Source: an uncultured bacterium (GTDB lineage Bacteria > Chlamydiota > Chlamydiia > Chlamydiales > Parachlamydiaceae). From it: a DNA stretch of 26,831 bases. Under the pieces are notes generated by a model. That model ran no database searches and was not told where the DNA came from. It saw nothing but the letters and a program-made list of their open reading frames with translations. The stretch covers positions 348-27,178 of the forward strand of contig CAZOAX010000001.1 in assembly GCA_964577735.1 (NCBI GenBank), read 5' to 3'. A program made the position numbers and the translations under genes. This document shows, piece after piece, positions 1 through 26,725 of the stretch (its first letter is position 1; each line of letters opens with the position of its first letter).

Positions 1-45
1 ATTATTGCGTTTTTAGTTATTTTAAATCAATTTATTTATTCGTTT

Positions 46-77
46 AAAATCCCTGCCCCGTGAGTGCGGAACAGAGA
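46..77 (-). terminator. Putative intrinsic terminator behind the displaced lysS 3'-end copy
   Basis: Minus strand reads TCTCTGTTCCG-CACTCA-CGGGGCAGGGA-TTTT: an 11-bp stem with three G-U pairs and a short U-tract, starting 5 nt after the TAA at 85..83. Confidence 0.55.
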
Positions 78-82
78 GAGAA

Positions 83-142
83 TTATCTGTCTGGTTTCAT
101 CCAGGGGAAGTAGAGGACGTCGCGGGAGGACGTCGCGGATGG
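83..142 (-). pseudogene. Displaced and frameshifted duplicate of the lysS 3' end (att-like direct repeat)
   Basis: 93..125 matches 469..501 at 32/33 nt. A 13-bp tandem duplication follows (gaggacgtcgcgg at 113..125 and 126..138), then atgg matches 502..505. Without the duplication it encodes IRDVLYFPWMKPDR*, versus IRDVLYFPWMKPEKESDDK* in lysS. Confidence 0.85.
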
Positions 143-150
143 TTATTAAA

Positions 151-387
151 TTAAAAAAAGTATTCGAAGTGAAGTGAGAGCAAAGGTGTGTTGTCGATTG
201 GCTTTTGCTTCACAGATTTGTGTTCAAAATAACGATATTCTGATTGGAGTGGCCAAGGGCTTTGCGCCTCTTGAATTGCATAGGTTCTAAGAATATTCAT
301 GCGGACACGAGTTTTCATCCGATCCGTATTTTGAGATTCTTTTAGAGAAAAATTCACCGATGGGTTTGAATTATTGTTAACAGACAT
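151..387 (-). CDS. Small orphan ORF (78 aa) or gene remnant lying between the two lysS 3' ends
   Basis: ATG at 387 is preceded by AAGGAA. The N-terminus MSVNNNSNPSVNFS is Ser/Asn/Pro-rich. No recognisable domain. The ORF track starts it at 420. Confidence 0.35.
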   Translation of the reverse strand: MSVNNNSNPSVNFSLKESQNTDRMKTRVRMNILRTYAIQEAQSPWPLQSEYRYFEHKSVKQKPIDNTPLLSLHFEYFF

Positions 388-443
388 AGGTTCCTTAATG
401 GTTGTGCTGAGCCTGACCATTCGCTGATGGCCAGGCGGTAGTG

Positions 444-2030
444 TTATTTATCGTCAGATTCTTTTTCGGGTTTCATCCAAGGGAAGTAGAGGACGTCGCG
501 GATGGAGGCGGCCTCTGTGAAGATCATGGTGAGGCGGTCGATGCCGATGCCGACGCCGCCGGTTGGAGGCATGCCTTGGCAGATGGCTTCGATGAACTCT
601 TCATCAAGTGGAGAGGCTTCTTCATCACCGCTTTCTTTACGCTCAGCTTGGAATTCAAGGAGCTTGCGTTGAAGTTCAGGGTCATTGAGCTCTGAGTAGG
701 CATTGCACATCTCTTGGGAAAGGATGAAGCTTTCAAATCGTTCGACGATCCCTTCTGCGCGCTCTTTTGGATCGCGATGGAGCTTGCAAAGAGGAGTGGT
801 TTCGATGGGGTGGTTGATGATGTGGTGCGGCTGAATGAGGTGAGGTTCTGCCTTGATCTCAAAGAGGGCTGCGATCAGTAACCCGCGTGAAAGCGTCGGA
901 ACTTTTTTTGGATCGATGTGGCCGCTATCGAGCAAGAGTTTTTTGATCTCTTCATCCGATAGGGTGTCAACATCGATTTTAGCGTAAGTGGAGATCGCTT
1001 CTTTCATCGTCATGCGCTTCCAGGGGGCTTTGACGTTGATTAGAACGGATTCCCCACGCTCAGATGAGTAAACGGGGATTTCTGTTTTGCCGTAGATTTT
1101 TAGTGCAAGGGATTCAAACAAGTTTTCCACAAGACGCATCATGTCTTGATAGTCCCAGTAGGCGGCATAGGCTTCCATCATGGTAAATTCAGGATTGTGG
1201 GTCCTATCGATCCCTTCATTGCGGAATACCTTGCCGAGTTCAAATACACGGTGCATGCCGCCGATGATCAGCTTCTTTAGAGGGATTTCAAGAGAGATGC
1301 GGAGGAACATTTCCTGATCGAGGGCATTGAGTTTTGTCTCAAAAGGGCGAGCTTCAGCACCGCCGTAGATCGATTGGAGTACGGGTGTTTCTACTTCCAT
1401 GAACTCTAGATTGTGCATGTAGTCGCGTACGAATTTAACGATCTCACTGCGGATCTTAAAGGTTTTTCTGACATCGTCGTTTGTGATCAGATCAAGCCAG
1501 CGTTTGCGATAGCGCAGTTCCTTGTCGGCAAGTCCTGCATGTTTTTCAGCTAAGGGGAGAAGGGTTTTTGTCAAAAGGGTGACTTCCTTTACAAAAAGGG
1601 TCAATTCTCCTTTCTGAGTACGGAAGAGATTGCCTTTGACGCCTATGATATCGCCGATGTCGAGTTTCTTTTCGATGAACTTGTAGGAAGTCAATTCTTC
1701 ATTTTCAAGTCCAATGACTTTTGAAATGTCGCGGTTGAACATCACTTGAAGGCGACCGGACTGGTCTTGAATATGTCCAAAGGCATTTTTCCCCATAGAT
1801 CTAAAAAGAACAAGTCTTCCGGCAGCAACAACTTCTTCTGTCGTGCCGCTAGCTGCATCTTCGCTTGAGCCGACCGGGAGGTCTTGGTATTTGGTTTCTA
1901 ACGTAAGAGAATCTGTATTGGGTTTAGAGTATGCAGGAAATGGGTCGATCGGAAGGGCCCGTATTTCTGCAAGTTTAGTTGATCGGTTGATAAATTCATC
2001 ATGTGCGTGGTAATCAGGCTTTTTAATCAT
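444..2030 (-). CDS. lysS: Lysine--tRNA ligase, class II
   Basis: N-terminal OB-fold anticodon domain (GRL..FRSMGKNAFGHIQD), RYRKRWLDL, motif 2 FRNEGIDRTHNPEFTMME, motif 3 GVGIGIDRL. Confidence 0.98.
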   Translation of the reverse strand: MIKKPDYHAHDEFINRSTKLAEIRALPIDPFPAYSKPNTDSLTLETKYQDLPVGSSEDAASGTTEEVVAAGRLVLFRSMGKNAFGHIQDQSGRLQVMFNRDISKVIGLENEELTSYKFIEKKLDIGDIIGVKGNLFRTQKGELTLFVKEVTLLTKTLLPLAEKHAGLADKELRYRKRWLDLITNDDVRKTFKIRSEIVKFVRDYMHNLEFMEVETPVLQSIYGGAEARPFETKLNALDQEMFLRISLEIPLKKLIIGGMHRVFELGKVFRNEGIDRTHNPEFTMMEAYAAYWDYQDMMRLVENLFESLALKIYGKTEIPVYSSERGESVLINVKAPWKRMTMKEAISTYAKIDVDTLSDEEIKKLLLDSGHIDPKKVPTLSRGLLIAALFEIKAEPHLIQPHHIINHPIETTPLCKLHRDPKERAEGIVERFESFILSQEMCNAYSELNDPELQRKLLEFQAERKESGDEEASPLDEEFIEAICQGMPPTGGVGIGIDRLTMIFTEAASIRDVLYFPWMKPEKESDDK

Positions 2031-3841: not shown

Positions 3842-5509
3842 ATGAGTAAAGTTAATGGCAATCAACCAGTTCAACTTAATAGTATCGATCAAATATTTAA
3901 CGGCAGAAGTGGTGGAGATACAGCGATCAATACGGGACTGATCAATGGTTATGGAAAAGACAATGATGTGACCTACCTTATTTCCCATTTGAAAAAAGAT
4001 GACACCATTACGGTTGATCGCGACGTGGATGGACATTTGAGCTGGAAGATTGGAACGACAGATGTAAAAATAGGATCTTCCTGGTGGACTCGTGTCAAAC
4101 ACTCCGTGAAGAAGTTTTTCTCAGCCAAATACAAGGATGCGTCAGACATCAAAGTGATGCAAAATGCCGATAAGATCAGAAGGGCTTACGCTGTTTGCTT
4201 GCAGCAGGAAGAAGCTAAAGCAGATGTTGATAATAATTACTTAGCAAATCTGAAAGATCTACGACAAGCAGCGGATGATGTCATCGCTCAAAATGAAAAG
4301 GATGCAAATGACCTAATCCTTCAAAAACAAGAAGAAATTAGAGTTGCCAAGGAAGCCAAAGATCAAAAAATTTCCGATTTGACCAGCCAAATTAACACCG
4401 GCGAAGGTGAACTTGCGGAGTTAAGGGAAAATCGAACAAATGCAAATGACAAGATTCAAGAGCAAAATGACAAGCTCACAGAGTTAAATACTTCTAAAGA
4501 TGCATTGCTAACCAAAGAAGCATATGAATCTCTTCTTGGAACCATCAAAACAGTCAGAGACACATTCAAAGAGATTAATCTTTATGCCAACGATGAAGAA
4601 AAACAAATCATTAGGACAAGCGAAGGTATTCTAGGTGTTAAATTAGTCAATAATATTGATGCATGGCCGCCTGTATTAAATGAAACGGTTGTAAAGCAAA
4701 AAGAAAATGAAATTAATCAAGCTCTCGAATCTCTCAATGGATATGTTACTGATATTGAGGAAAGAAATAAAATGATTATTAAGTATCAGGAGATTGTGCA
4801 AGCTCTTGAAACGCAAATTTCAGAAAAAGAAACAGCAATCAATACATTAAGAACTGATTTGCAAGCAGAACAGGCTGTAGAGGAAGAAGAAGTTTCAGAA
4901 GAGACTACAGTTGAAGAGCCTATTCCAAAAGTGATTGACGCAGAACCTGAGGTATCTGCAGAAGATCAAGCGATTGCAAATACGATGCAGAATCAAAGGC
5001 TAGATCGTGACGAGGCCATTTTCTACAACGGGCTCAATGCCAATGAAAAAGAGCTTTATGACAATCTGCGTAAACCGGCAGATAGGGCCACAGATTGCAC
5101 TCCGTTTGCCGATTTCTTTGTTTCAGTATTGAAAGGCAGAGGTGTGAAGAGGACTGCAAATGGCGCTACTTCAACAATTACATTGAGCAATCCTGGTGTT
5201 GTGTCTATGAGACTTGGAGGAGATCCTTCAACTATTACACTGCCAGCAAAGTTCACCATGACTTATGCAGTAGACAAGCAAACCTGGACCCTTAACGGTA
5301 AAGGTTTAAGAATTGAATTGTACGGGCATGATGTCAATCTGGATGAAACCAGATTTGAGATTCGGGCGAATGATCTGAACATCAAGGCCGAAAGTTCAAA
5401 ACAGTCATTTTTCGTCCGGATGGGGATTGCGACAGCTTACAAAAACATCCCTGTTGCCTACGACGTCGTCAAGCAGGATGCATTTCATTCTGATAATCAA
5501 GTGGTTTAG
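3842..5509 (+). CDS. Orphan coiled-coil protein, paralog 1 (555 aa), putative secreted effector with extra C-terminal domain
   Basis: Shares the head domain (VQLNSIDQIF...NDVTYL.SH...ITVDRDVDGHL.WKIG...GSSWW.RVK) with 5582 and 6717. Then a long heptad region, an acidic linker (EEEEVSEETTVEEP) and a ~170-aa beta-rich C-terminus. No signal peptide or transmembrane segment. Confidence 0.85.
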   Translation: MSKVNGNQPVQLNSIDQIFNGRSGGDTAINTGLINGYGKDNDVTYLISHLKKDDTITVDRDVDGHLSWKIGTTDVKIGSSWWTRVKHSVKKFFSAKYKDASDIKVMQNADKIRRAYAVCLQQEEAKADVDNNYLANLKDLRQAADDVIAQNEKDANDLILQKQEEIRVAKEAKDQKISDLTSQINTGEGELAELRENRTNANDKIQEQNDKLTELNTSKDALLTKEAYESLLGTIKTVRDTFKEINLYANDEEKQIIRTSEGILGVKLVNNIDAWPPVLNETVVKQKENEINQALESLNGYVTDIEERNKMIIKYQEIVQALETQISEKETAINTLRTDLQAEQAVEEEEVSEETTVEEPIPKVIDAEPEVSAEDQAIANTMQNQRLDRDEAIFYNGLNANEKELYDNLRKPADRATDCTPFADFFVSVLKGRGVKRTANGATSTITLSNPGVVSMRLGGDPSTITLPAKFTMTYAVDKQTWTLNGKGLRIELYGHDVNLDETRFEIRANDLNIKAESSKQSFFVRMGIATAYKNIPVAYDVVKQDAFHSDNQVV

Positions 5510-5516
5510 AGATTTT

Positions 5517-5546
5517 AGCCAAAATTGCGATTCAGCAGTTTTGGCT
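5517..5546 (+). other. Stem-loop between paralogs 1 and 2
   Basis: AGCCAAAATTGC-GATTCA-GCAGTTTTGGCT: 12-bp stem with one G-U pair and no real U-tract. A TATAAT follows at 5550..5555. Confidence 0.45.
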
Positions 5547-5581
5547 TCCTATAATTAATAGATAAAAAAAGGTGGTAATAT

Positions 5582-6577
5582 ATGAGTATGGTTTCAGGAA
5601 GTGGAGATCATCTAGTTCAACTAAATAGCATTGATCTGATCTTCGCAGGAAAAAAAGGCGGCGACAGTGTTGAGATCAATCAAGGGATTATGAAGGCTTA
5701 TGGAGATGACAATGATGTGACTTACCTTGTCAGTCATGTCAAATTGCCAAAGGGAGATAAAGAGCCTAAGGCTATCACGGTCGATCGCGATGTGGATGGG
5801 CACCTGACATGGAAAATTGGCGATAAAGAAGTTCATCTCGGATCTTCCTGGTGGGTACGGGTCAAGCATGCTATCATGTCGTTCTTCTCAAAGGACTATA
5901 GAATTAAGCATGAGATTGATGTGACAAGGAAAATTGATAGGATCCGAAATGCTTACGCTGAATGCTTGGACAAAGAATACCAAGCAGAGGAAGCTGCAGC
6001 AGAGGCACTTAGACAGCAGCAAGCAGATATAGACGATGCAGCGCTACTTGCTCAACAGCAGCAAGAAGCTGAGGATGCGGCGTTGTTACTGCAGCAACAG
6101 GAAGCAGCTAAGCAGGAAAGAATTGAGGATCTGAAAACAAATATCAGTACTCAAGAGGCAAGCTTGGAGGGCCTAAAAGCGGATCTAGGTATTTTAAATA
6201 CTACAGTGTCTGACTATGAAACTAAATTAGGGGAGATTGTAGATCGTCAAATAGAGCTTGCCACTAAGAAAAATAAAACACTAACGATGATTGACGATTA
6301 TAATTCATGGATCGTTTCAGAGATCAGTAAGAGGGCTTTGCAGGAATTGTATCCAGCATTGAATGGCTTGTCAACTGAGGAAGTGTTAACTGGGTTAAAT
6401 GCGGCCGCCAAGGATATAGATGATGAATCTAATCTGTTAGATCAAGAGTCTGCAACACGTAATACCATGATTGCAGAGATCAGAGATAATCAAATTCCGG
6501 CTAAAAATACAGAAATTACAAATAAGCAGAATGAGATTGCTCAACTTAAAACAGATCTTCTAGCAGAAGAAAGCTAA
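5582..6577 (+). CDS. Orphan coiled-coil protein, paralog 2 (331 aa)
   Basis: Conserved head domain, Gln/Ala linker, heptad-rich body and C-terminus IPAKNTEITNKQNEIAQLK shared with paralog 3. AGGTGG RBS. Confidence 0.88.
   Translation: MSMVSGSGDHLVQLNSIDLIFAGKKGGDSVEINQGIMKAYGDDNDVTYLVSHVKLPKGDKEPKAITVDRDVDGHLTWKIGDKEVHLGSSWWVRVKHAIMSFFSKDYRIKHEIDVTRKIDRIRNAYAECLDKEYQAEEAAAEALRQQQADIDDAALLAQQQQEAEDAALLLQQQEAAKQERIEDLKTNISTQEASLEGLKADLGILNTTVSDYETKLGEIVDRQIELATKKNKTLTMIDDYNSWIVSEISKRALQELYPALNGLSTEEVLTGLNAAAKDIDDESNLLDQESATRNTMIAEIRDNQIPAKNTEITNKQNEIAQLKTDLLAEES
6035..6109 (+). repeat. Two imperfect 39-nt coding repeats (DAALL(A/L)QQQ(Q)EA); equivalent repeat in paralog 3 from 7167
   Basis: Units start at 6035 and 6074. 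In paralog 3 they start at 7167 and 7206. Confidence 0.7.
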
Positions 6578-6588
6578 ACTCTGTTCTT

Positions 6589-6620
6589 TGCCCGACCAGT
6601 TCATGGCCGGGCATTTTTTT
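6589..6620 (+). terminator. Intrinsic terminator after paralog 2
   Basis: TGCCCGACCA-GTTCA-TGGCCGGGCA (one mismatch) followed by T7. Confidence 0.85.
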
Positions 6621-6716
6621 ATGCCAAATTCATTAAGATATTGTTAACAACTATTTTATTTTATTTATATTTAGTTTACAATTTTACAAAAACTTTTATA
6701 AAAAATAGGTGATAAT

Positions 6717-7757
6717 ATGAGTAAGATCTCAAATGGTGGAGCACCGGTTCAACTTAATAGTATTGATCAGATCTTCGTAGGTAAGAACGGCGGCGATAGC
6801 ATTGATATCAATCAGGGCTTTCTAAAGGTTTATGGGGATGACAATGATGTAACTTACCTCGTCAGCCATGTCAAATTGCCAAAGGGAGATAAAGAGCCTA
6901 AGGCTATCACGGTCGATCGCGATGTAGATGGGCATCTGACATGGAAAATTGGTGATAAAGAAGTTCATCTCGGGTCTTCTTGGTGGGTACGGGTCAAGCT
7001 TGCCATTATGTCGTTCTTTTCAAAGGACTATAGAATTAAGCATGAAATTGACGTAACAAGGAAAATTGATAGAATCCGCAATGCCTACGCTGAATGCTTG
7101 GACAAAGAATCCGTAGAAGAAGAAGCTACAACAGATCCTCTTGGACAAGAGCAAGCAGATACGGATGCTGCAGCACTATTAGCTCAGCAACAGCAAGAAG
7201 CTGCGGATGCGGCGTTATTGCTCCAGCAGCAGTTAGAAGAAGCTGCAGCAGCTAAGCTTGAAATAATTGAAAATTTGAACACGAAAATCACAGAAAAAGA
7301 ATCAGAGCTTAACGGTTTGCATGGCGACTTAGATACTCTAAACCAAAACCTGGCAACGGTTAATGAAAAGCTAGATGATAATGGTCGTTTTGTCGTAGAG
7401 CTTAATACGAATAAAAATAAAGCTAAACAGATCGTCAATATCTTAGCTCCAGTTTTTGTGTTAAATACAGATTCTATGTTTATTTCAAAGTTTGATGGAA
7501 ACGCCTTAGCTCTTTTTGACCTTGTTCCTGCTGTGCATAATGCCGATCTGTCAAAAGAAGACAAATTGACTGCATTAAATGTTTATATCAAACAACAAGA
7601 AGAAGAAGTTGAGTTGTTGACTAATGATAAGGAAAATCTTAGCAATGCAATTGAGCAATTGACCAATGTTGACATTCCAGCTAAAAATACAGAAATTACA
7701 AATAAGCAGAATGAGATTGCTCAGCTTAAGGCTGATCTTCAAACAGAAGAAGGCTAA
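6717..7757 (+). CDS. Orphan coiled-coil protein, paralog 3 (346 aa)
   Basis: 92/93 aa identical to paralog 2 over YGDDND...CLDKE, with the same C-terminal motif and a divergent middle. AGGTG RBS. Confidence 0.88.
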   Translation: MSKISNGGAPVQLNSIDQIFVGKNGGDSIDINQGFLKVYGDDNDVTYLVSHVKLPKGDKEPKAITVDRDVDGHLTWKIGDKEVHLGSSWWVRVKLAIMSFFSKDYRIKHEIDVTRKIDRIRNAYAECLDKESVEEEATTDPLGQEQADTDAAALLAQQQQEAADAALLLQQQLEEAAAAKLEIIENLNTKITEKESELNGLHGDLDTLNQNLATVNEKLDDNGRFVVELNTNKNKAKQIVNILAPVFVLNTDSMFISKFDGNALALFDLVPAVHNADLSKEDKLTALNVYIKQQEEEVELLTNDKENLSNAIEQLTNVDIPAKNTEITNKQNEIAQLKADLQTEEG

Positions 7758-7762
7758 TACTT

Positions 7763-7792
7763 TGCCCGGCTGTCATGGCCGGGTATTTTTTT
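7763..7792 (+). terminator. Intrinsic terminator after paralog 3, abutting the convergent priA stop
   Basis: TGCCCGGCT-GTCAT-GGCCGGGTA followed by T7. Clearly homologous to the 6589 terminator. Confidence 0.85.
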
Positions 7793-10004
7793 AAAAAAAC
7801 AGCGAGGTGGGATTGATATCAATACACACTTTGAATGGATCTTTTCTTTGATCTTTCACTTTCAGAATGGCACGTTGGATAGCTGCCATCTTCGGTCCTT
7901 TGATCACAAACTGCAAGCGGTACATCTCTTTTATCTTAGCATGGCCGGGTGCATCGACTACGGTCACCTCATATTCAAGAGGCAGTTCTTTGAGTATTTG
8001 CAAACGGAAATTTTCTGCGGCATTTCTTAGCGTGACCGGTTCCTTGCCGGTGAAGCGGATTTTAGCAAGGGAGGCGAATGGGGGATAGCCAAGGAGTTTT
8101 CTTGTATCGTATTCTTCTTTGAAAAAGCTTTCAAAGTCTTGCTTAGAGGCATGCTGGATAGTGCTATTTTCCGGGATGCAGGTTTGGATAAGCACTTCAC
8201 CGGGGTGGATGCCGCGACCTGCTCTGCCGGCGACTTGCGTGAGAAGTTGAAAGGTCGTTTCTCCAGATCTGAAATCGGGAAGATTAAGGCTGATATCGCT
8301 GTTGAGGATGCCGACAAGAGTGACTTCCGGGAAATGGAGCCCTTTGGCAAGCATTTGGGTGCCAATCAAAACGTCAGCTTTTCCGGTCCGGAAAGAGCGG
8401 TAGAGCTTTTGGTGGCTGCCTTTATGCTTTGTGGTATCAGCGTCAAGGCGCAGGATTCTAATTTCGGGGAAAATGGCATAGAGAGCCACTTCCACTTGCT
8501 CAGTGCCGATCCCTTTAAATTTCATGAGCCCTTCAGCTTTGCAGTGGGGGCAGTTTCTTGGGGGTGGGGAGATGGACTCATTGCAGAGATGACAACAGAG
8601 TGTATTGTCATTTTTGTGGAAGGTCAGTGAGAGATCGCACTTGGTGCATTTAATGCTTTCACCGCAAGATGTGCACATCATGAGCGTGTGGAATCCACGT
8701 CTATTGAGAAAGAGAATGGTTTGCTCTCCTTTTCGATACCGTTTTTCAATGCCTGTCAAAAGGGCATCTGAAAAGATCGTCATCCCTTTTTTCTTGTCAT
8801 ACTCCACTTTCATGTCGACAATATTCACAGTGGGCATAGGGGCGTGCTTCGGTCTTGCTTTCAACGTACTTAAAATATACTTACCAGAGATTGCATTGTG
8901 ATAGCTTTCAAGGCTGGGTGTGGCGCTACCAAGTAAGACAACAGCTTTTGAATAAAATCCCCGCATAACAGCCACGTCTCTTGCATGGTAGGCAGGCATC
9001 ATGTCCGTTTGTTTATAGGAGCTTTCATGTTCTTCATCGACGAGGATCAGGCCTAGATTTTGTACAGGGCTGAAAATAGCAGATCTCGCTCCGATCACAA
9101 TTTTAGCCTCTCCCCGCTGGATCCTTTTCCATTCGTCATATTTTTCACCGGCACTTAGGCGGTAGTGCAGGATGGCGGTCTTTCCTTCAAAGCGGCTTCT
9201 AAAATGTTCAATGGTCTGTGTGGTCAGCGCGATCTCCGGCACGAGCATGATCACGCCTTTATTCAGTTCCAATGCCTTTGCAATAGCTTGGAGATAGATC
9301 TCGGTTTTGCCGCTGCCTGTGACGCCATGGATCAGATGGGTCTCATAATGGTTTTTGTCGAGCCCTGCGTGGATTTTTTCCATGACAATGGATTGCTCTT
9401 CAGTCAACTGTTTTGGTTTGGAGCGGAAATATTCTTCGCCGACAAGAGGGGATCTATCGATCCGTGCTTTCTCTAAGTGCAGAATGCCTTTAGTCACGAG
9501 TGTATTTAATGAAGATCTTCCGGCTCCTGTTTTTTCTAATAGCTCGCTAAGAAAAACCTTGCCTTCAGCTTTTAGCATGTAGTCGAGGATCTCTGATTGG
9601 GGATGGGATTTTTTTCGAATGGTGACGAGGTCTTCTGCTATTTCCTTTCTTGTTTTTACACGGGAGACAAGGTATTGCTCTTTATGTTTTGTGTTTTTAA
9701 TGGCAGAGGGGACTAAAGATGGCAGGATAAGAGAAAGGGGTGTGCAGTAATAACCTGACATCCAGCCTGCCACTTGTAGTAAATCACTTGCAATGAACGG
9801 GATGGGGTCTAGAATTTTCTCGATCGACTTAAGCGCATAGGGAGGGGCTTTATCCGTGATATTTAACACAATCCCTTTTTTCATCACCCCTCTTAAGGGA
9901 ATTTCGACAAGCTGCCCAAGTTTAATTTGCGAAAGGAGGGATTCTGGAATTAGGTAATCAAAGGTTTTATCGATCTTTAGATCTAAAGCGATGTTTGCAA
10001 TCAT
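7791..10004 (-). CDS. priA: Primosomal protein N' (replication restart helicase PriA)
   Basis: N-terminal 3'-DNA-binding region (FDYLIP..GQLVEIPLR), Walker A HGVTGSGKT, VDEEHE, four CxxC pairs (CTSC, CTKC, CHLC, CPHC), QVAGRAGR. Confidence 0.98.
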   Translation of the reverse strand: MIANIALDLKIDKTFDYLIPESLLSQIKLGQLVEIPLRGVMKKGIVLNITDKAPPYALKSIEKILDPIPFIASDLLQVAGWMSGYYCTPLSLILPSLVPSAIKNTKHKEQYLVSRVKTRKEIAEDLVTIRKKSHPQSEILDYMLKAEGKVFLSELLEKTGAGRSSLNTLVTKGILHLEKARIDRSPLVGEEYFRSKPKQLTEEQSIVMEKIHAGLDKNHYETHLIHGVTGSGKTEIYLQAIAKALELNKGVIMLVPEIALTTQTIEHFRSRFEGKTAILHYRLSAGEKYDEWKRIQRGEAKIVIGARSAIFSPVQNLGLILVDEEHESSYKQTDMMPAYHARDVAVMRGFYSKAVVLLGSATPSLESYHNAISGKYILSTLKARPKHAPMPTVNIVDMKVEYDKKKGMTIFSDALLTGIEKRYRKGEQTILFLNRRGFHTLMMCTSCGESIKCTKCDLSLTFHKNDNTLCCHLCNESISPPPRNCPHCKAEGLMKFKGIGTEQVEVALYAIFPEIRILRLDADTTKHKGSHQKLYRSFRTGKADVLIGTQMLAKGLHFPEVTLVGILNSDISLNLPDFRSGETTFQLLTQVAGRAGRGIHPGEVLIQTCIPENSTIQHASKQDFESFFKEEYDTRKLLGYPPFASLAKIRFTGKEPVTLRNAAENFRLQILKELPLEYEVTVVDAPGHAKIKEMYRLQFVIKGPKMAAIQRAILKVKDQRKDPFKVCIDINPTSLFF

Positions 10005-14644: not shown

Positions 14645-14983
14645 ATGTCTCATCATTGTAATGATAAGAGCTGTGAAATCGATCACCATCATGAGCATTC
14701 ATCCGGATGCGGATGTGGTTGCGGCTGCAGTAACTGCAAATGCGCATGCCATCAAAAAGAAGCCTGTTTTTCTGAGCAGCTTCTTGAAATGGCAGACGAA
14801 GCTTGGATGGAACTGCTACATGAGAAGATCAAAAAGCACATTGAAACCATATCAGGTAAGCAATTAGATAAGCTTGCTGCCATTGTTTCAAAAGCCAACC
14901 ACGCGCGTTGGACAGAAAAGATGGACATTTGCAAAACCAAAGATGACTTCAAACAGCAGATTCAAGACTTCTTCCACAAGTAA
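14645..14983 (+). CDS. His/Cys-rich small protein (112 aa), putative metal binder
   Basis: N-terminus HHC...HHHEH..GCGCGCGCSNCKCACH followed by a helical domain (ADEAWMELL...ANHARW). GAGG RBS. Confidence 0.75.
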   Translation: MSHHCNDKSCEIDHHHEHSSGCGCGCGCSNCKCACHQKEACFSEQLLEMADEAWMELLHEKIKKHIETISGKQLDKLAAIVSKANHARWTEKMDICKTKDDFKQQIQDFFHK

Positions 14984-14989
14984 TCTATC

Positions 14990-15075
14990 AAAACGTACCC
15001 GTACGCGTACCCGTTCCCTTACCCGATTTCGCTTAAAACCGGGAAAGGGAACGGGTACGCGTACGGGTACGTTTT
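14990..15075. repeat. Perfect 31-bp inverted repeat (REP-like palindrome, probable bidirectional terminator) between convergent genes
   Basis: 14990..15020 is the exact reverse complement of 15045..15075. After one A-A mismatch there are 4 more pairs and a 14-nt loop. The arms are GTACCC-like hexamer arrays. Confidence 0.95.
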
Positions 15076-15079
15076 TATT

Positions 15080-16210
15080 TTAAATTAAATCATTTAAGAT
15101 TGCTTCTCGGTAGCGGGCCATGAAGTGGACCATGTAGTGGAGGTTGTGGGCGGTGGCGAGGATCATGGCGGTGACTTCATGGGCTTTGAAAAGATGATGG
15201 ACGTACGATAGGGAGTAGTTTTGGCAGGTGGGGCAGGTGCAGGATGGCACCGGAGGGCCGAAGTTTGTGGCATGTTCGGTACGGCTGAGTTTGACATTGC
15301 CCGTATCGCTAAGGAGGATCCCGTGGCGGGCAGCTTTGGTTGGATAGGAGCTATCAAAGGTGTCAATGCCGAGAGGGATGTTTTGGTGAAGGGATTCCAG
15401 ATCGCCGATGCCAAGAAGGTGGTTGGGTCTTTCTTTTGGAAGATGCGGCATGGTCGCACTTAGCATGTGATGCATTTCGTCTTTTGTCTTACCCATACTT
15501 CCGCCGATGGCAAATCCGTCAAAATCCTGGGCCGAAAGGATTTGGCAGCTTTGTTTTCTGAGCTCAAGGTCGACGCCCCCGTGAATGACGGCATACATGG
15601 CTTGATTTTGGACGTTAGATTTGTGCTCGGCGAGGGAGCGTTTTTCCCAACGGTGCGTGCGGTCGAAGGATTTTTTGAGGTCGGGGCCGGAAATGTGGTA
15701 AGGAGGAAGTTCATCAAAGGGGATGATGATATCGGCGCCGAGGTCTTTTTGTGCCTGAATGGAGCTTTCGGGAGTGAGGAGCACTTTTTTTCCATCGCGA
15801 TAGGAGCGGAATAGGACGCCATCTTCTGAGATTTTTAAGACAAGTTTGCCGTGTTTTTTAGTCCCGCGCCCTTTTAATTCATCTGCGACAGATCCGTAGG
15901 CAAGACTGAATACTTGAAATCCGCCGGAGTCTGTAATGATCGGAAATTTTCGATTGATGTACTTATGAAGTCCGCCGGCTTGTTTAACGACATCAGTTCC
16001 CGGCTGTAGCATCAAATGGTAGGTGTTGCAGAACATAAGCTGCAGGCCGATGTCGTTGACCATTGTATTATCGAGCGCTTTCAAAGTTCCATTGGTTCCA
16101 ACCGCTACAAAATTAGGCGTATCGATGATTCCGTGGGGTGTGTGGATTCGACCCACCCGGGCTCTTGATTTTTTTGATTCATGCAGGATTTCGAAGCGAA
16201 AGAAACTCAT
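15080..16210 (-). CDS. tgt: tRNA-guanine(34) transglycosylase, chlamydia-type (probably queuine-inserting)
   Basis: RARVGRIHTPHG, NTYHL, catalytic TDSGGFQ and DTFDS, Zn site CTCPTC...H. Likely start 16210 (ATGA overlap with yhhQ); the track starts at 16222. Confidence 0.95.
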   Translation of the reverse strand: MSFFRFEILHESKKSRARVGRIHTPHGIIDTPNFVAVGTNGTLKALDNTMVNDIGLQLMFCNTYHLMLQPGTDVVKQAGGLHKYINRKFPIITDSGGFQVFSLAYGSVADELKGRGTKKHGKLVLKISEDGVLFRSYRDGKKVLLTPESSIQAQKDLGADIIIPFDELPPYHISGPDLKKSFDRTHRWEKRSLAEHKSNVQNQAMYAVIHGGVDLELRKQSCQILSAQDFDGFAIGGSMGKTKDEMHHMLSATMPHLPKERPNHLLGIGDLESLHQNIPLGIDTFDSSYPTKAARHGILLSDTGNVKLSRTEHATNFGPPVPSCTCPTCQNYSLSYVHHLFKAHEVTAMILATAHNLHYMVHFMARYREAILNDLI

Positions 16211-22884: not shown

Positions 22885-24475
22885 TTTTTCCCACCCTGAG
22901 TGGTTGCTTGGATTGCTTGTTATTCCACTCGCTTGGACTATGAAGTCTATAGTGCATCCCAAGCATAACTTAGAAGCCTTTATTGATCGCCATCTTTTGC
23001 CTTATCTATTGATCGGAAAAGAGAAAGGGTCCAAGACGCGCAGTTTGATATTCTGGTCCATTGCATGGACGTGTTTACTGCTGGCCCTTTCAGGTCCGAG
23101 ATTTTCCTATCGGGAAGTCGATGTTCTTGCTCCAGGACAGAACCTTGTGATTGCGTTGGATCTTTCTGAATCGATGAATGCAGACGACGTCAAGCCCTCT
23201 CGGCTAAAACTTGCCAAATTGAAAATTGAGGATCTGATCAAGCAACAAAAAGGAGCTAAACTTGGATTGATCGGATTTGCAAAAGATCCCCACATGATCG
23301 CGCCCTTAACAGATGATAAGGAAACCCTTCGATCCTACTTGCCATCGATCAGTACAGACCTAGTGCATGTTCAAGGAAGCCGGTTAACCGAGACTCTAGA
23401 GATGGCCATACAAATGCTGAATGCTGAAGCCGGTGAGAATAAAGCCATCCTCCTTATCACAGACGGGGGATTTGAAGATGCCAGCGCACTTTCTATTGCT
23501 AAAGATATTAAAATCCATGTGATCGGAATGGGGACGCCAGAAGGCGCCCTTTTAAAAAACGCTAAAGGTAATGTTCTAAAAAAAGGAGGCACACCTGTTC
23601 TTTCCAAGCTTGAAAAAGAAAAACTCATGGAAATCAGCAAGCTTTCAGGTGGACGCTACTTTGATCCATATCAAGATGTGGACGTGTTTGATAGAACAGT
23701 TGCTGAAAACATCGATCGGAAAATGCGGATTTGGGATGAGCATTTTTACCTTTTTCTTTTTCCTGTCATTCCATTCTTCCTTCTCTGGTTTAGAAGGGGC
23801 TATATTACTTATGGACTGCTGCTGCTTTTGATTCCTACAGCAGATCTGAAAGCTTATTTCAAAAACGGTAATGAACTAGCGAAAGAGGCATTTGAAGCCG
23901 GGGAATATGAAGCTGCAGTTGAACTGTTTGATGAATGCTATCAAAAAGGGGTTTGTTACTACAGGCTTGGCGATTACGCAAAAGCAGAAGAGCAATTTAA
24001 ACAATCATCAGACTGTGGCTATAATTTGGGCAATGCCCTTGCCAAACAAATGACAAAAGAAAAACTGCAGGAAGCGCTTACTGCCTATGATGCTGTATTA
24101 GAAAAAGATCCTGAACATACTAGGGCCTATCAAAATCGGGAAATTGTCAAAAAACTTCTGGAAGAGCAGGAGCAGCAAGATAAACAGGATAAACAGGATA
24201 ATCAAGATCAGCAGGATAAAGAGGACAATCAAGATCAGCAGGATAAACAGGATAAGCAAGAGCCGCAAGATAAGCAACAAGATCAAAAGCAACAAGATCA
24301 AAAGCAACAAGATCAAAAGCAGCAGGAACAGAGAAATGAAGAGAAGGACTGCAAAGAACAAGATGCAGATCTTTGGCTAAATAGAATCCAAAACGATCCG
24401 AAAGAGTTTCTTAAAAATAAATTCCAAATTGAATCAAAGAAAAATGGAACAAAACAGGCGGTCGATCCATGGTGA
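22874..24475 (+). CDS. batB: VWA-TPR fusion (BatB/BatC-like)
   Basis: F.HPEWL N-terminus, MIDAS DLSESM...ITDG, TPR-like YNLGNAL...A..AYDAVLEKDP, Gln-rich linker, WLNRIQNDPKEFLKNKF tail. Confidence 0.82.
   Translation: MPFNFSHPEWLLGLLVIPLAWTMKSIVHPKHNLEAFIDRHLLPYLLIGKEKGSKTRSLIFWSIAWTCLLLALSGPRFSYREVDVLAPGQNLVIALDLSESMNADDVKPSRLKLAKLKIEDLIKQQKGAKLGLIGFAKDPHMIAPLTDDKETLRSYLPSISTDLVHVQGSRLTETLEMAIQMLNAEAGENKAILLITDGGFEDASALSIAKDIKIHVIGMGTPEGALLKNAKGNVLKKGGTPVLSKLEKEKLMEISKLSGGRYFDPYQDVDVFDRTVAENIDRKMRIWDEHFYLFLFPVIPFFLLWFRRGYITYGLLLLLIPTADLKAYFKNGNELAKEAFEAGEYEAAVELFDECYQKGVCYYRLGDYAKAEEQFKQSSDCGYNLGNALAKQMTKEKLQEALTAYDAVLEKDPEHTRAYQNREIVKKLLEEQEQQDKQDKQDNQDQQDKEDNQDQQDKQDKQEPQDKQQDQKQQDQKQQDQKQQEQRNEEKDCKEQDADLWLNRIQNDPKEFLKNKFQIESKKNGTKQAVDPW
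24185..24316 (+). repeat. Coding tandem repeats in the BatB/C linker
   Basis: Three imperfect 27-nt units (24185, 24212, 24239) and three perfect 15-nt units aagcaacaagatcaa (24272..24316) encoding Q/D/K runs. Confidence 0.9.
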
Positions 24476-25869
24476 TTTTTTTATATCTGCTTTTGCCTAT
24501 CCTTGCGTTTGCAGGGGATTTCACAAGCCATGTCAATCGCAATCCGACAAACTTAGGCGAAGGCTTTACCCTTACTCTAACTTTATCTAATCATACTCCA
24601 AAGGGGCATCCTGCGCTGGAACCACTTAGAGAGTCCTTTATTATTCATTCTCAATCGCAGTCCAATAGCTTTCAAATTACAAATGGGAAAACAGCTTCGA
24701 GCACCCTATGGCAGCTCACATTGATCCCGCAAAAAGCCGGAAAGTTGACTATTCCAGCGATTATCATTGCAACAGATAGCGGTATTCTTGCAACAGATCC
24801 GATCACGCTTGAGGTCTCCAATGAAAAGGCAAAAGAGCAAGATGTGTCCCTTGAAACAACTGCGTCGACGCGTAAACCCTATAAAAATGAAACCATACTC
24901 TACTCAGTCAAGCTCATTTCGCCCCATAATTTAAATAACATCTCCCTTGAAAATATTGCACTTGAAGATGCCATCGTTGAGCTTGCTGAAAAGCCCAAAA
25001 TTCAACAGGAAGTGATCAACGGCGTTAAAAACCATGTGGTGGAATATAATTACCTGATCACTCCCTTGAAGCCCGGCACCCTCATCATTCCATCCCTTGC
25101 ACTTCAAGGTGAAATCCCTGTCAGAAGCAAAGGCGGCCATCGCGACCTTTTTGCCATGATGCAAGGTTTTGATCAGATCAAACCCTTTGTCCTCAACACC
25201 GACCGGATCCAACTGGAAGTCAATCCGGCTGAAGACAACATCCAACCTTGGCTGCCGGCAGAATCCCTCGTGATTAAAGAGACCTTTCCTACTGGCCCTC
25301 TGCAAGCTCATGAGCCCTTCACACGCAGCTTTGAAATCAACGGTGAAGGCATCCTCGCCACCCACCTTCCCGACCTCAGTGCTCTCCAGAACGATCCTTC
25401 CTTTCGCATTTATTCAGACAACCCTGAGCTCAAAACCCAATTCCAAAATGGTAAAATCCTCTCCTCACGTAAAGAATTCTACACCCTCATTCCTCAATCA
25501 GATGGTAGCCTTACCCTCCCGGCCATCTCCGTCGAATGGTGGGATACCAGAAACCACAAGAAAAACATCACGACCATACCCGCCCGCACTTTGCAAGTCC
25601 TTCCTTCCGCAAGAACACCTGCTCCAGAAGCCCCTGCAGCAACAGTCATCACCGAACCCCAAAACACCACCTTGCTCTACACCCTGATTGTTGCCCTTGC
25701 CATCCTTCTAACCATCACCATGGTCGCGCTCTTTGTCCTCCAAAGACAGATCATTAACCTCAAAACACCACCCAAAGCAAAAACTACTTCATCCTACGCC
25801 CCAACAGTTCAAGTCCCCAAAGTCAAAAAGGAAAAGAAGGACAAGCTTCCAGACTTAAATCCAACCTAG
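24469..25869 (+). CDS. batD: BatD-like exported protein
   Basis: Signal peptide, beta-rich Ig-like segments (TLIPQKAGKLTIPA; YLITPLKPGTLIIP; TLPAISVEWWDT), C-terminal transmembrane helix, terminal position in the bat operon. Confidence 0.82.
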   Translation: MVIFLYLLLPILAFAGDFTSHVNRNPTNLGEGFTLTLTLSNHTPKGHPALEPLRESFIIHSQSQSNSFQITNGKTASSTLWQLTLIPQKAGKLTIPAIIIATDSGILATDPITLEVSNEKAKEQDVSLETTASTRKPYKNETILYSVKLISPHNLNNISLENIALEDAIVELAEKPKIQQEVINGVKNHVVEYNYLITPLKPGTLIIPSLALQGEIPVRSKGGHRDLFAMMQGFDQIKPFVLNTDRIQLEVNPAEDNIQPWLPAESLVIKETFPTGPLQAHEPFTRSFEINGEGILATHLPDLSALQNDPSFRIYSDNPELKTQFQNGKILSSRKEFYTLIPQSDGSLTLPAISVEWWDTRNHKKNITTIPARTLQVLPSARTPAPEAPAATVITEPQNTTLLYTLIVALAILLTITMVALFVLQRQIINLKTPPKAKTTSSYAPTVQVPKVKKEKKDKLPDLNPT

Positions 25870-25955: not shown

Positions 25956-26282
25956 GTGATAGCAAAGAGAAAGCCTGAAAAGATCGCAAATGTCTTAGTT
26001 AAGATCAAGGAATGCATAGGAAAAGGGCGGTATTTTGTCACTGCTCACGCATTCATTAGGCAAAACGAGCGCATGATCAGCTTGCCGGAAAGCTTACATG
26101 TGTTAGAAACAGGTTATGAAGAGAAGAAAAAAACTCGCTTTGATAGCGAGCACAACGCTTGGAAATATGCGATTCGTGGAAAAACTGTAAGGGATGAGTT
26201 AGATGTTCGGGTTATTGTCGCTTTTGATGAGGATGGTATGTTAATCATCACCGTGATGCACATAGGGGAGGAAATTCTATGA
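25956..26282 (+). CDS. DUF4258-domain protein, putative type II toxin
   Basis: T.HA..R..ER.I....L.VL..G...Y.IRGKT....RVIV.F...LIITVM pattern. GTG start and ATGA coupling to an HTH gene. Confidence 0.7.
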   Translation: MIAKRKPEKIANVLVKIKECIGKGRYFVTAHAFIRQNERMISLPESLHVLETGYEEKKKTRFDSEHNAWKYAIRGKTVRDELDVRVIVAFDEDGMLIITVMHIGEEIL

Positions 26283-26725
26283 AAGGTAGTAAGAAAGATA
26301 CAATAGTTTGGGAGGGTTTAGGGTTTCCTATTCGACTGATCAATGTGCCGATGAAAAAAGTTTTTGGTGAATGGGTTTTAGATATCAATTTAGATCATTT
26401 CCAAAAAGCTGTACTTCATACATTAGCAAGGAAAGCAACGTCTCTGAGCGGGGCAGAGCTTCGATTTATCATCGATTATCTAAAGATGTCTACACGTGGA
26501 TTTGCTCAGATTTTTGGGGTGACGCATGCTGCTGTCATCAAATGGGAAAATGAAAAATCAAGAATGGGGCCTAGCACAGAAGTTTGCCTTCGTTTGTACA
26601 TTCTCGATCATTTAAAAGTGGCTGATAAGGAATTTCGTAAATTATATTTGGAAATCAGTCATCAATCATTATCTGAAAATGACGATTCACTTCTAGAAAT
26701 TGATGCAAAGAAAATTGCATGTTGA
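26279..26725 (+). CDS. XRE-family HTH protein, putative antitoxin (MqsA/YgiT-like layout)
   Basis: LSGAELRFI...MSTRGFAQIFGVTHAAVIKWE helix-turn-helix, preceded by a beta-rich N-terminal module without Zn-finger cysteines. Confidence 0.75.
   Translation: MKGSKKDTIVWEGLGFPIRLINVPMKKVFGEWVLDINLDHFQKAVLHTLARKATSLSGAELRFIIDYLKMSTRGFAQIFGVTHAAVIKWENEKSRMGPSTEVCLRLYILDHLKVADKEFRKLYLEISHQSLSENDDSLLEIDAKKIAC

Follow-up and report, generated by a model that had tools for sequence, protein, structure and literature searches.

C-rich gene ends beside variable cargo slots in an environmental chlamydia: a probable footprint of cassette exchange

Described exchange and repair systems closest to the C-rich tails

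Minimal mobile elements and gene-transfer hotspots carry variable cargo between conserved recombining core genes, the cargo being exchanged mostly without duplication and leaving mosaic flanks. We know of no strand-specific base bias at minimal mobile elements, and our literature search found neither a bias of this kind at these elements or at gene-transfer hotspots, nor a description of C-rich tails at cargo slots. Strand-polar footprints have been described around meiotic double-strand breaks, where, over 1-2 kb, a given type of substitution is enriched to one side of the break and the complementary type to the other side, and translesion synthesis has been invoked to explain them (PMC7615360). 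In Neisseria, the SsnA/NTS system associates a small nuclease gene with its own dispersed hairpin repeat, which flanks it, and strand-specific cutting alters the adjoining recombination (PMC11893778); a search for terms in that paper gave no mention of codons or GC content. Mutagenic break repair by Pol IV and Pol V in E. coli is reported to involve error-prone resynthesis near the break (PMC5542668), and the spectrum of wild-type Pol V includes AT-to-TA and CG-to-AT transversions (PMC3401427). Finally, the known wobble bias driven by Rho makes coding sequence purine-rich and thereby avoids Rho (PMC13323073).

The tails described here appear, by analogy only, to resemble meiotic-break footprints in their working and Ssn nuclease systems in their architecture. 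Like the meiotic footprints, they show a strand-specific bias that decays away from a focal point, with a weaker and poorly replicated complement beyond it, but the former are eukaryotic, arise at programmed breaks and involve REV1/Pol eta (PMC7615360), whereas the tails are bacterial, lie at cargo slots, have saturated silent sites, are mostly one-sided and are known from composition alone. Like Ssn/NTS, the slots can hold a small nuclease-like gene flanked by a dispersed hairpin repeat. Ssn is, however, a GIY-YIG protein, and whereas the repeats of Ssn/NTS and RAYT/REP lie next to a cognate nuclease of GIY-YIG or Y1 type, those here flank GxxExxY genes (PF13366), whose nuclease activity is putative. 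The genome yields three GIY-YIG matches, the one neighbourhood viewed being free of the family repeat, and no Y1_Tnp match in an assembly that is 80% complete. Like minimal mobile elements, the slots hold variable cargo between core genes and have mosaic flanks, and the error-prone resynthesis that we propose for them would recall that of E. coli break repair (PMC5542668).

Three C-rich genes of the window and the contents of their slots

The window, i.e., the whole stretch of 26,831 nucleotides under study, comes from an assembly of 482 contigs, and its relatives, going by the named matches, are environmental chlamydiae. The anchor gene of the first slot is lysS (444..2030, minus strand), encoding a class II lysine-tRNA ligase (NCBIfam PRK00484/TIGR00499), in whose tail (483..596, minus strand) the synonymous sites are saturated with C. 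The initial annotation had counted 30 C-ending codons out of 38 in 596..483, where C is possible in 33, and 27 C against 5 G in the mRNA of 781..840; both counts are right, as is that of C10/G14 for the batB control (23461..23520). For the priA control (7801..7860), the figures G12/C10 are correct for the plus strand but are not those of the mRNA, which has C12/G10. When each tail is set against the head of its own gene, C amounts to 33/44 versus 42/105 in lysS (p 1e-4), 36/51 versus 46/111 in tgt (p 7e-4) and 23/44 versus 29/111 in batD (p 0.003), while priA and rimO show no significant difference. The priA gene (7791..10004, minus strand), unit-final and devoid of both repeat and C tail, serves as a control. 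Change points fall at 596 in lysS, where the C fraction passes from 0.47 to 0.84, at 15853 in tgt and at 24892 in batD; they open a C-rich 3' part of tgt (15080..15853, minus strand; from 0.38 to 0.62, with 0.72 in the last 40 codons) and of batD (24892..25869, plus strand; from 0.22 to 0.53).

Between the same flanks, relatives hold different contents, as in a variable-cargo hotspot. Four different contents are found in the lysS slot when the loci L212, L213 and L220 are compared, the present cargo of the window being an orphan ORF of 89 aa (151..420, minus strand) without Pfam or NCBIfam match, and the C content of the lysS tail varies from 35 to 84% among relatives. Within lysS, a mosaic patch (738..931, minus strand) has at least 28 differences from a related strain, many of them transversions, with none among those listed in 932-1036. 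Beyond the orphan ORF lies a displaced copy of the lysS 3' end (82..141, minus strand), apparently an insertion scar, with an internal 13-nt tandem repeat that the related strain's copy does not have. An integrase-type att site would show a duplicated 3' end plus a cognate integrase; among C-tail genes the duplicate is present at lysS and four others only, and the stretch from lysS to its copy holds no evident integrase. Genome-wide, displaced copies of gene ends, that of lysS included, are rare but enriched (5/219 versus 7/1716, p 0.007). It is worth mentioning that the C-rich 3' end of an RNase Z-like gene (G000:C118:1875-3900) is copied 1 kb downstream (99 nt, 89% identical), and the gene is separated from the copy by half a repeat and a cargo gene of opposite orientation.

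The tgt slot is occupied in the window by a hairpin repeat with 43-nt arms (14987..15078), from a family of about 31 members in the genome, and on the opposite side of this repeat a 112-aa gene also ends in a C-rich tail (14894..14983, plus strand; from 0.32 to 0.67). Elsewhere the slot holds a GxxExxY gene, a terminator-like hairpin only, a five-gene RHS island or two small ORFs, which makes five contents altogether. Five relatives, the close ones and the more distant L216, keep the tgt gradient, the last 40 codons having 57-73% C, even though their tails differ from the window in 39-54% of synonymous codons. The initial annotation had asked whether orthologues would keep the gradient despite synonymous turnover; that of tgt survives a turnover of about 50%. 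In L215, by contrast, tgt overlaps its neighbour without spacer, has 28% C and shows no gradient. The last 86 residues of Tgt (window 15080-15340) are about twice as divergent from the members of their cluster as these are among themselves, owing either to tail replacement or to faster change.

Behind batD, the cargo is a pair of DUF4258 and MqsA-like genes (25956..26725, plus strand), and L214 has another sequence there. A groEL gene with a C tail (G000:C235:38-3786) is followed by a gene pair that by eye looks like this one. At 3842-7757 of the window there is a set of three orphan paralogues that have their head in common, and relatives differ in the length and number of the copies. Given the differing contents, the varying tails and the mosaic patch, the lysS and tgt sites can be regarded as variable slots whose bias is dynamic, rather than one inherited patch. 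Many gene ends are slots with a changing content of hairpin repeats, nuclease-like GxxExxY genes, toxin-antitoxin pairs and other small cargo.

Genome-wide placement and base spectrum

A set of 2360 genes, called by a home-made model and assigned to the leading or lagging strand from contig skew, was scored for C at synonymous sites against a strand-specific expectation; a tail was called at z of at least 3 and a strong 25-site window at z of at least 5. Pooled z values take codons as independent, and per-gene tests are preferred where given. Tails are found in 2.5% of the genes inside operons but in 17-21% of those that end a unit, an odds ratio of 9 (p 3e-28), and among the 113 genes with a strong window, 97 have it ending at most 60 codons from the stop. 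The genome-wide check suggested by the initial annotation therefore places C-rich tracts mainly at unit ends, as it had supposed, but what predicts a tail is an adjoining repeat or cargo slot, not the unit end as such. Long hairpin repeats of several families, some of them flanking GxxExxY genes predicted to be nuclease-like, occupy 207 spacers of the genome and are found in half of all convergent spacers of at least 30 nt versus 4% of divergent ones. Genes followed by a repeat carry a tail in 47% of cases, against 9-10% of unit-final genes without repeat. For genes picked solely because they face a repeat, the observed/expected ratio of C falls with distance from 2.09 through 1.67, 1.40, 1.27, 1.19 and 1.14 to 1.06 (0-60 to 700-1000 nt), a decay over 1 kb as seen in break footprints; in the last 20 codons it is 1.94 for repeat-facing genes, 1.11 for unit-final genes without repeat and 0.98 for operon-internal genes. 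Where a C tail has no repeat, the next gene tends to be atypical and of low GC3 (p 8e-11). Tails are present in none of 38 genes whose downstream neighbour is conserved with G016, versus 24% of 33 non-internal genes whose neighbour has changed. No Chi-like motif stands out above the usual dinucleotide biases of the genome. The spacer from stop codon to repeat has a genome-wide median of 14 nt; in E. coli, REP hairpins at distances of this order are reported to stall ribosomes.

One might object that all genes share a codon gradient from start to end, or a translational speed ramp, to which slots are incidental, and the mild rise in unit-final genes without repeat (0.90 to 1.11) goes in that direction. 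Operon-internal genes nevertheless stay flat (0.96 to 0.98), head G and tail C of the same gene are negatively related, and highly expressed genes avoid GCC, ACC, CCC, GTC and TCC, the dominant codons of the tails. This explanation, already largely refuted for the present genome, appears highly improbable. Translational codon optimisation was likewise rejected: tail codons hardly follow those of highly expressed genes (rho 0.21, p 0.12) and go the opposite way in fourfold boxes.

Near repeats, fourfold sites have 0.69, 0.56 and 0.59 of the expected A, G and T and 2.17 of the expected C; Lys, Glu and Gln codons do not shift (observed/expected G of 0.96). No drift to C was seen at non-synonymous sites (ratio 1.04). 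The view that the signal is a gain of C and not a rise in GC is thereby borne out, as is the irrelevance of the replication strand, since tails are found on leading and lagging strands alike. A pure T-to-C mutational process, which the initial annotation had offered as the alternative, fails because fourfold A and G give way to C about as much as T does. The same gain from A, G and T alike, with unchanged G in Lys, Glu and Gln codons, excludes import of the tails from high-GC donors. The lysS motif does have matches of 44-53 nt, at 80% or more, in contigs of other organisms, but the codon spectrum already contradicts such import: G-ending codons do not rise (CTG unchanged at 0.11, GCG from 0.12 to 0.05, GGG from 0.16 to 0.06), and the C positions vary among relatives, so that a foreign origin is hardly credible. 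In sum, silent sites gain C from the three other bases alike on the strand whose 5'-to-3' direction leads to the slot; the gain is greatest beside the slot and fades within about 1 kb.

In being C-rich and G-poor near unit ends and in acting on synonymous sites, the tails are like rut sites, and the initial annotation had proposed that they may be selected as such. Extended to slots, the proposal is that transcripts entering a slot, sense upstream and antisense downstream, are made C-rich so that Rho silences incoming cargo, the hairpin being a pause site. Rho is encoded (TIGR00767 above cut-off), C-rich and G-poor RNA is rut-like (the purine excess of tails is -0.07 versus +0.05 for leading-strand genes), the effect peaks at 3' ends, A/G boxes are unchanged as selection for C predicts, and wobble positions in Bacilli are shaped by Rho (PMC13323073). 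Yet tails are not tied to missing terminators (21% with versus 19% without an intrinsic terminator, p 0.9, according to a simple home-made detector) and are commonest, at 49%, before the strongest hairpins. The CC/UC preference that constitutes the E. coli Rho signal (PMC13323073) is absent, the logit gain on the leading strand being 1.53, 1.30, 1.05 and 1.19 after A, C, G and T, with about equal values on the lagging strand. Moreover, the skew (C-G)/(C+G) ends near the stop, dropping from 0.35 just before it to 0.14 at +0..20, 0.02 at +20..50 and 0.00 at +50..100, and there is hardly any skew in the untranslated spacer (C 0.22, G 0.18), though past the stop a rut site would cost least; C tracts, for their part, extend up to 1 kb inside essential ORFs. 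The tgt gene of L215 has neither spacer nor tail, that of L217 has both a terminator-like hairpin and a tail, and Rho is encoded in 31 of 31 genomes while tails occur in some only. On these grounds we consider selection for Rho loading unlikely; were it right, insertion sites would be guarded by a silencing system encoded in codons, and this would be new as well.

A mirror beyond the slot, relatives and the exchange reading

A weaker gain of G appears beyond the slot. In the first 60 nt, genes starting behind a repeat have an observed/expected G of 1.66, with p 6e-4 per gene and p 0.009 within genes, the mirror is present in core-like genes (p 4e-5), and the tail C of the upstream gene correlates with the head G of the next gene (rho 0.27 at gaps of at least 150 nt), against a rho of -0.10 between tail C and head G of the same gene. 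Its strength is about one fifth of that of the tail, and it is significant solely in tandem and leading-strand genes, whereas divergent and lagging ones do not show it significantly, so that the direction of transcription matters. In other genomes the mirror is weak (G005 p 0.04, G004 p 0.12, G025 p 0.24), and it is absent in GxxExxY loci. The mirror favours a process acting on DNA while leaving a role for transcription; a Rho model that polices both sense and antisense RNA heading into the slot survives it.

Another process acting on DNA would be biased gene conversion in polar heteroduplexes formed at cassette exchange, either because G mismatches of the invading strand are the most stable or because C mismatches escape mismatch repair. 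The mosaic patch of lysS speaks for it, as do the presence of ComEC and MutS and the tgt tail of the window, whose distance to its cluster is about double that among the members (0.22 versus 0.08-0.11). Since each mismatch pair would be the same, however, both versions need a shift of A over G in Lys, Glu and Gln codons equal to that of C over T, and the observed values are 0.96 versus 1.86. In addition, DprA and ComM are not found in G019, which is 96% complete and has some tails, yet both are present in the tail-free G010. We hold conversion of this type to be quite improbable.

In samples of 60-400 kb per genome, G000, G025 and G005 have strong tails and four genomes weak ones, while none are seen in G010, G012, G029, G003 and G007. 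G010 is free of repeats as well as of tails; G029 has 67 GxxExxY matches and many repeats, yet no tails in 200 kb, and G019 has some tails without detected repeats. About 30 of the 67 matches in G029 are near-identical fragments, suggesting a non-autonomous element. In G019, the skew crosses non-coding DNA at one site: the spacer between lysS and its convergent partner (G019:C26:254494-254767, L124) is rich in C in its left part and in G in its right part. C tails beside GxxExxY genes were not found in Bacteroidota or other phyla. In the Bacteroidota GxxExxY loci (L160-L209), cassette-facing genes lean to G-ending tails, i.e., the opposite polarity (p 0.046, uncorrected), most strongly in L186, L194 and L209.

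Judging from base composition throughout, we believe that the C tails are probably a lasting strand-polar DNA footprint, by mutation or conversion, of cassette exchange. Against this count the weakness and strand dependence of the mirror, the genomes G029 and G019, the absence of drift to C at non-synonymous sites and the negative outcome of a blind test for UmuC. It is tempting to picture a slot that is repeatedly nicked, broken or recombined and whose core flanks are copied anew in repair, with a bias. What would fit most simply is dG misinserted in the strand made outwards from the slot, or equivalently dC inwards, a step that we put forward only tentatively and with some doubt. Selection would purge amino-acid changes and leave saturated silent sites; the spacer would be little skewed because it is replaced together with the cargo; and the 3'-end bias suggests that cutting or insertion may be favoured where transcription runs into the slot. 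A broader version, which we find possible though still short of an even chance, is that environmental chlamydiae run integrase-free cassette exchange at hundreds of gene ends, repair miscopying or converting one strand towards G and thereby saturating the silent sites of essential genes. If so, base skew alone would map current and extinct slots, and its polarity would report the repair route of each lineage. The footprint points to a localized, strand-specific force of mutation or conversion, new for bacteria, that would rewrite about one tenth of the genome's gene ends, and it would give a marker of gene-exchange hotspots that can be read from a single genome. Caution is needed in that C-rich tails can be mistaken for signals of Rho; rut predictors may be biased by them, and so may codon-adaptation scores and the phylogenies of lysS, tgt and similar genes.

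Several candidate genes were set against the tails. UmuC occurs in 7 of 7 genomes with some tails and is missing in 4 of 5 without, an association noticed post hoc after six gene families, and its C-terminal domain is patchily distributed (19 of 31 genomes). UmuDC as the cause was not confirmed when 30 genes next to GxxExxY loci of chlamydiae were tested blind (p 0.33), and the Pol V spectrum (PMC3401427) does not match that of the tails; the UmuC link is a lead only. The presence of DprA, ComM, Ku or GxxExxY does not track tails either. Operons of umuDC exist in environmental chlamydiae (L098:906-2629, L113:10803-12503). Reverse transcription was dismissed as well, as the sole reverse transcriptase found resembles that of a group II intron behind a repeat and showed no link to tails. 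The element is intact and group II intron-like, with a 442-aa reverse transcriptase, and lies directly behind half a family-7 hairpin repeat (L052:55-1985, G000:C338); class C introns insert behind hairpins.
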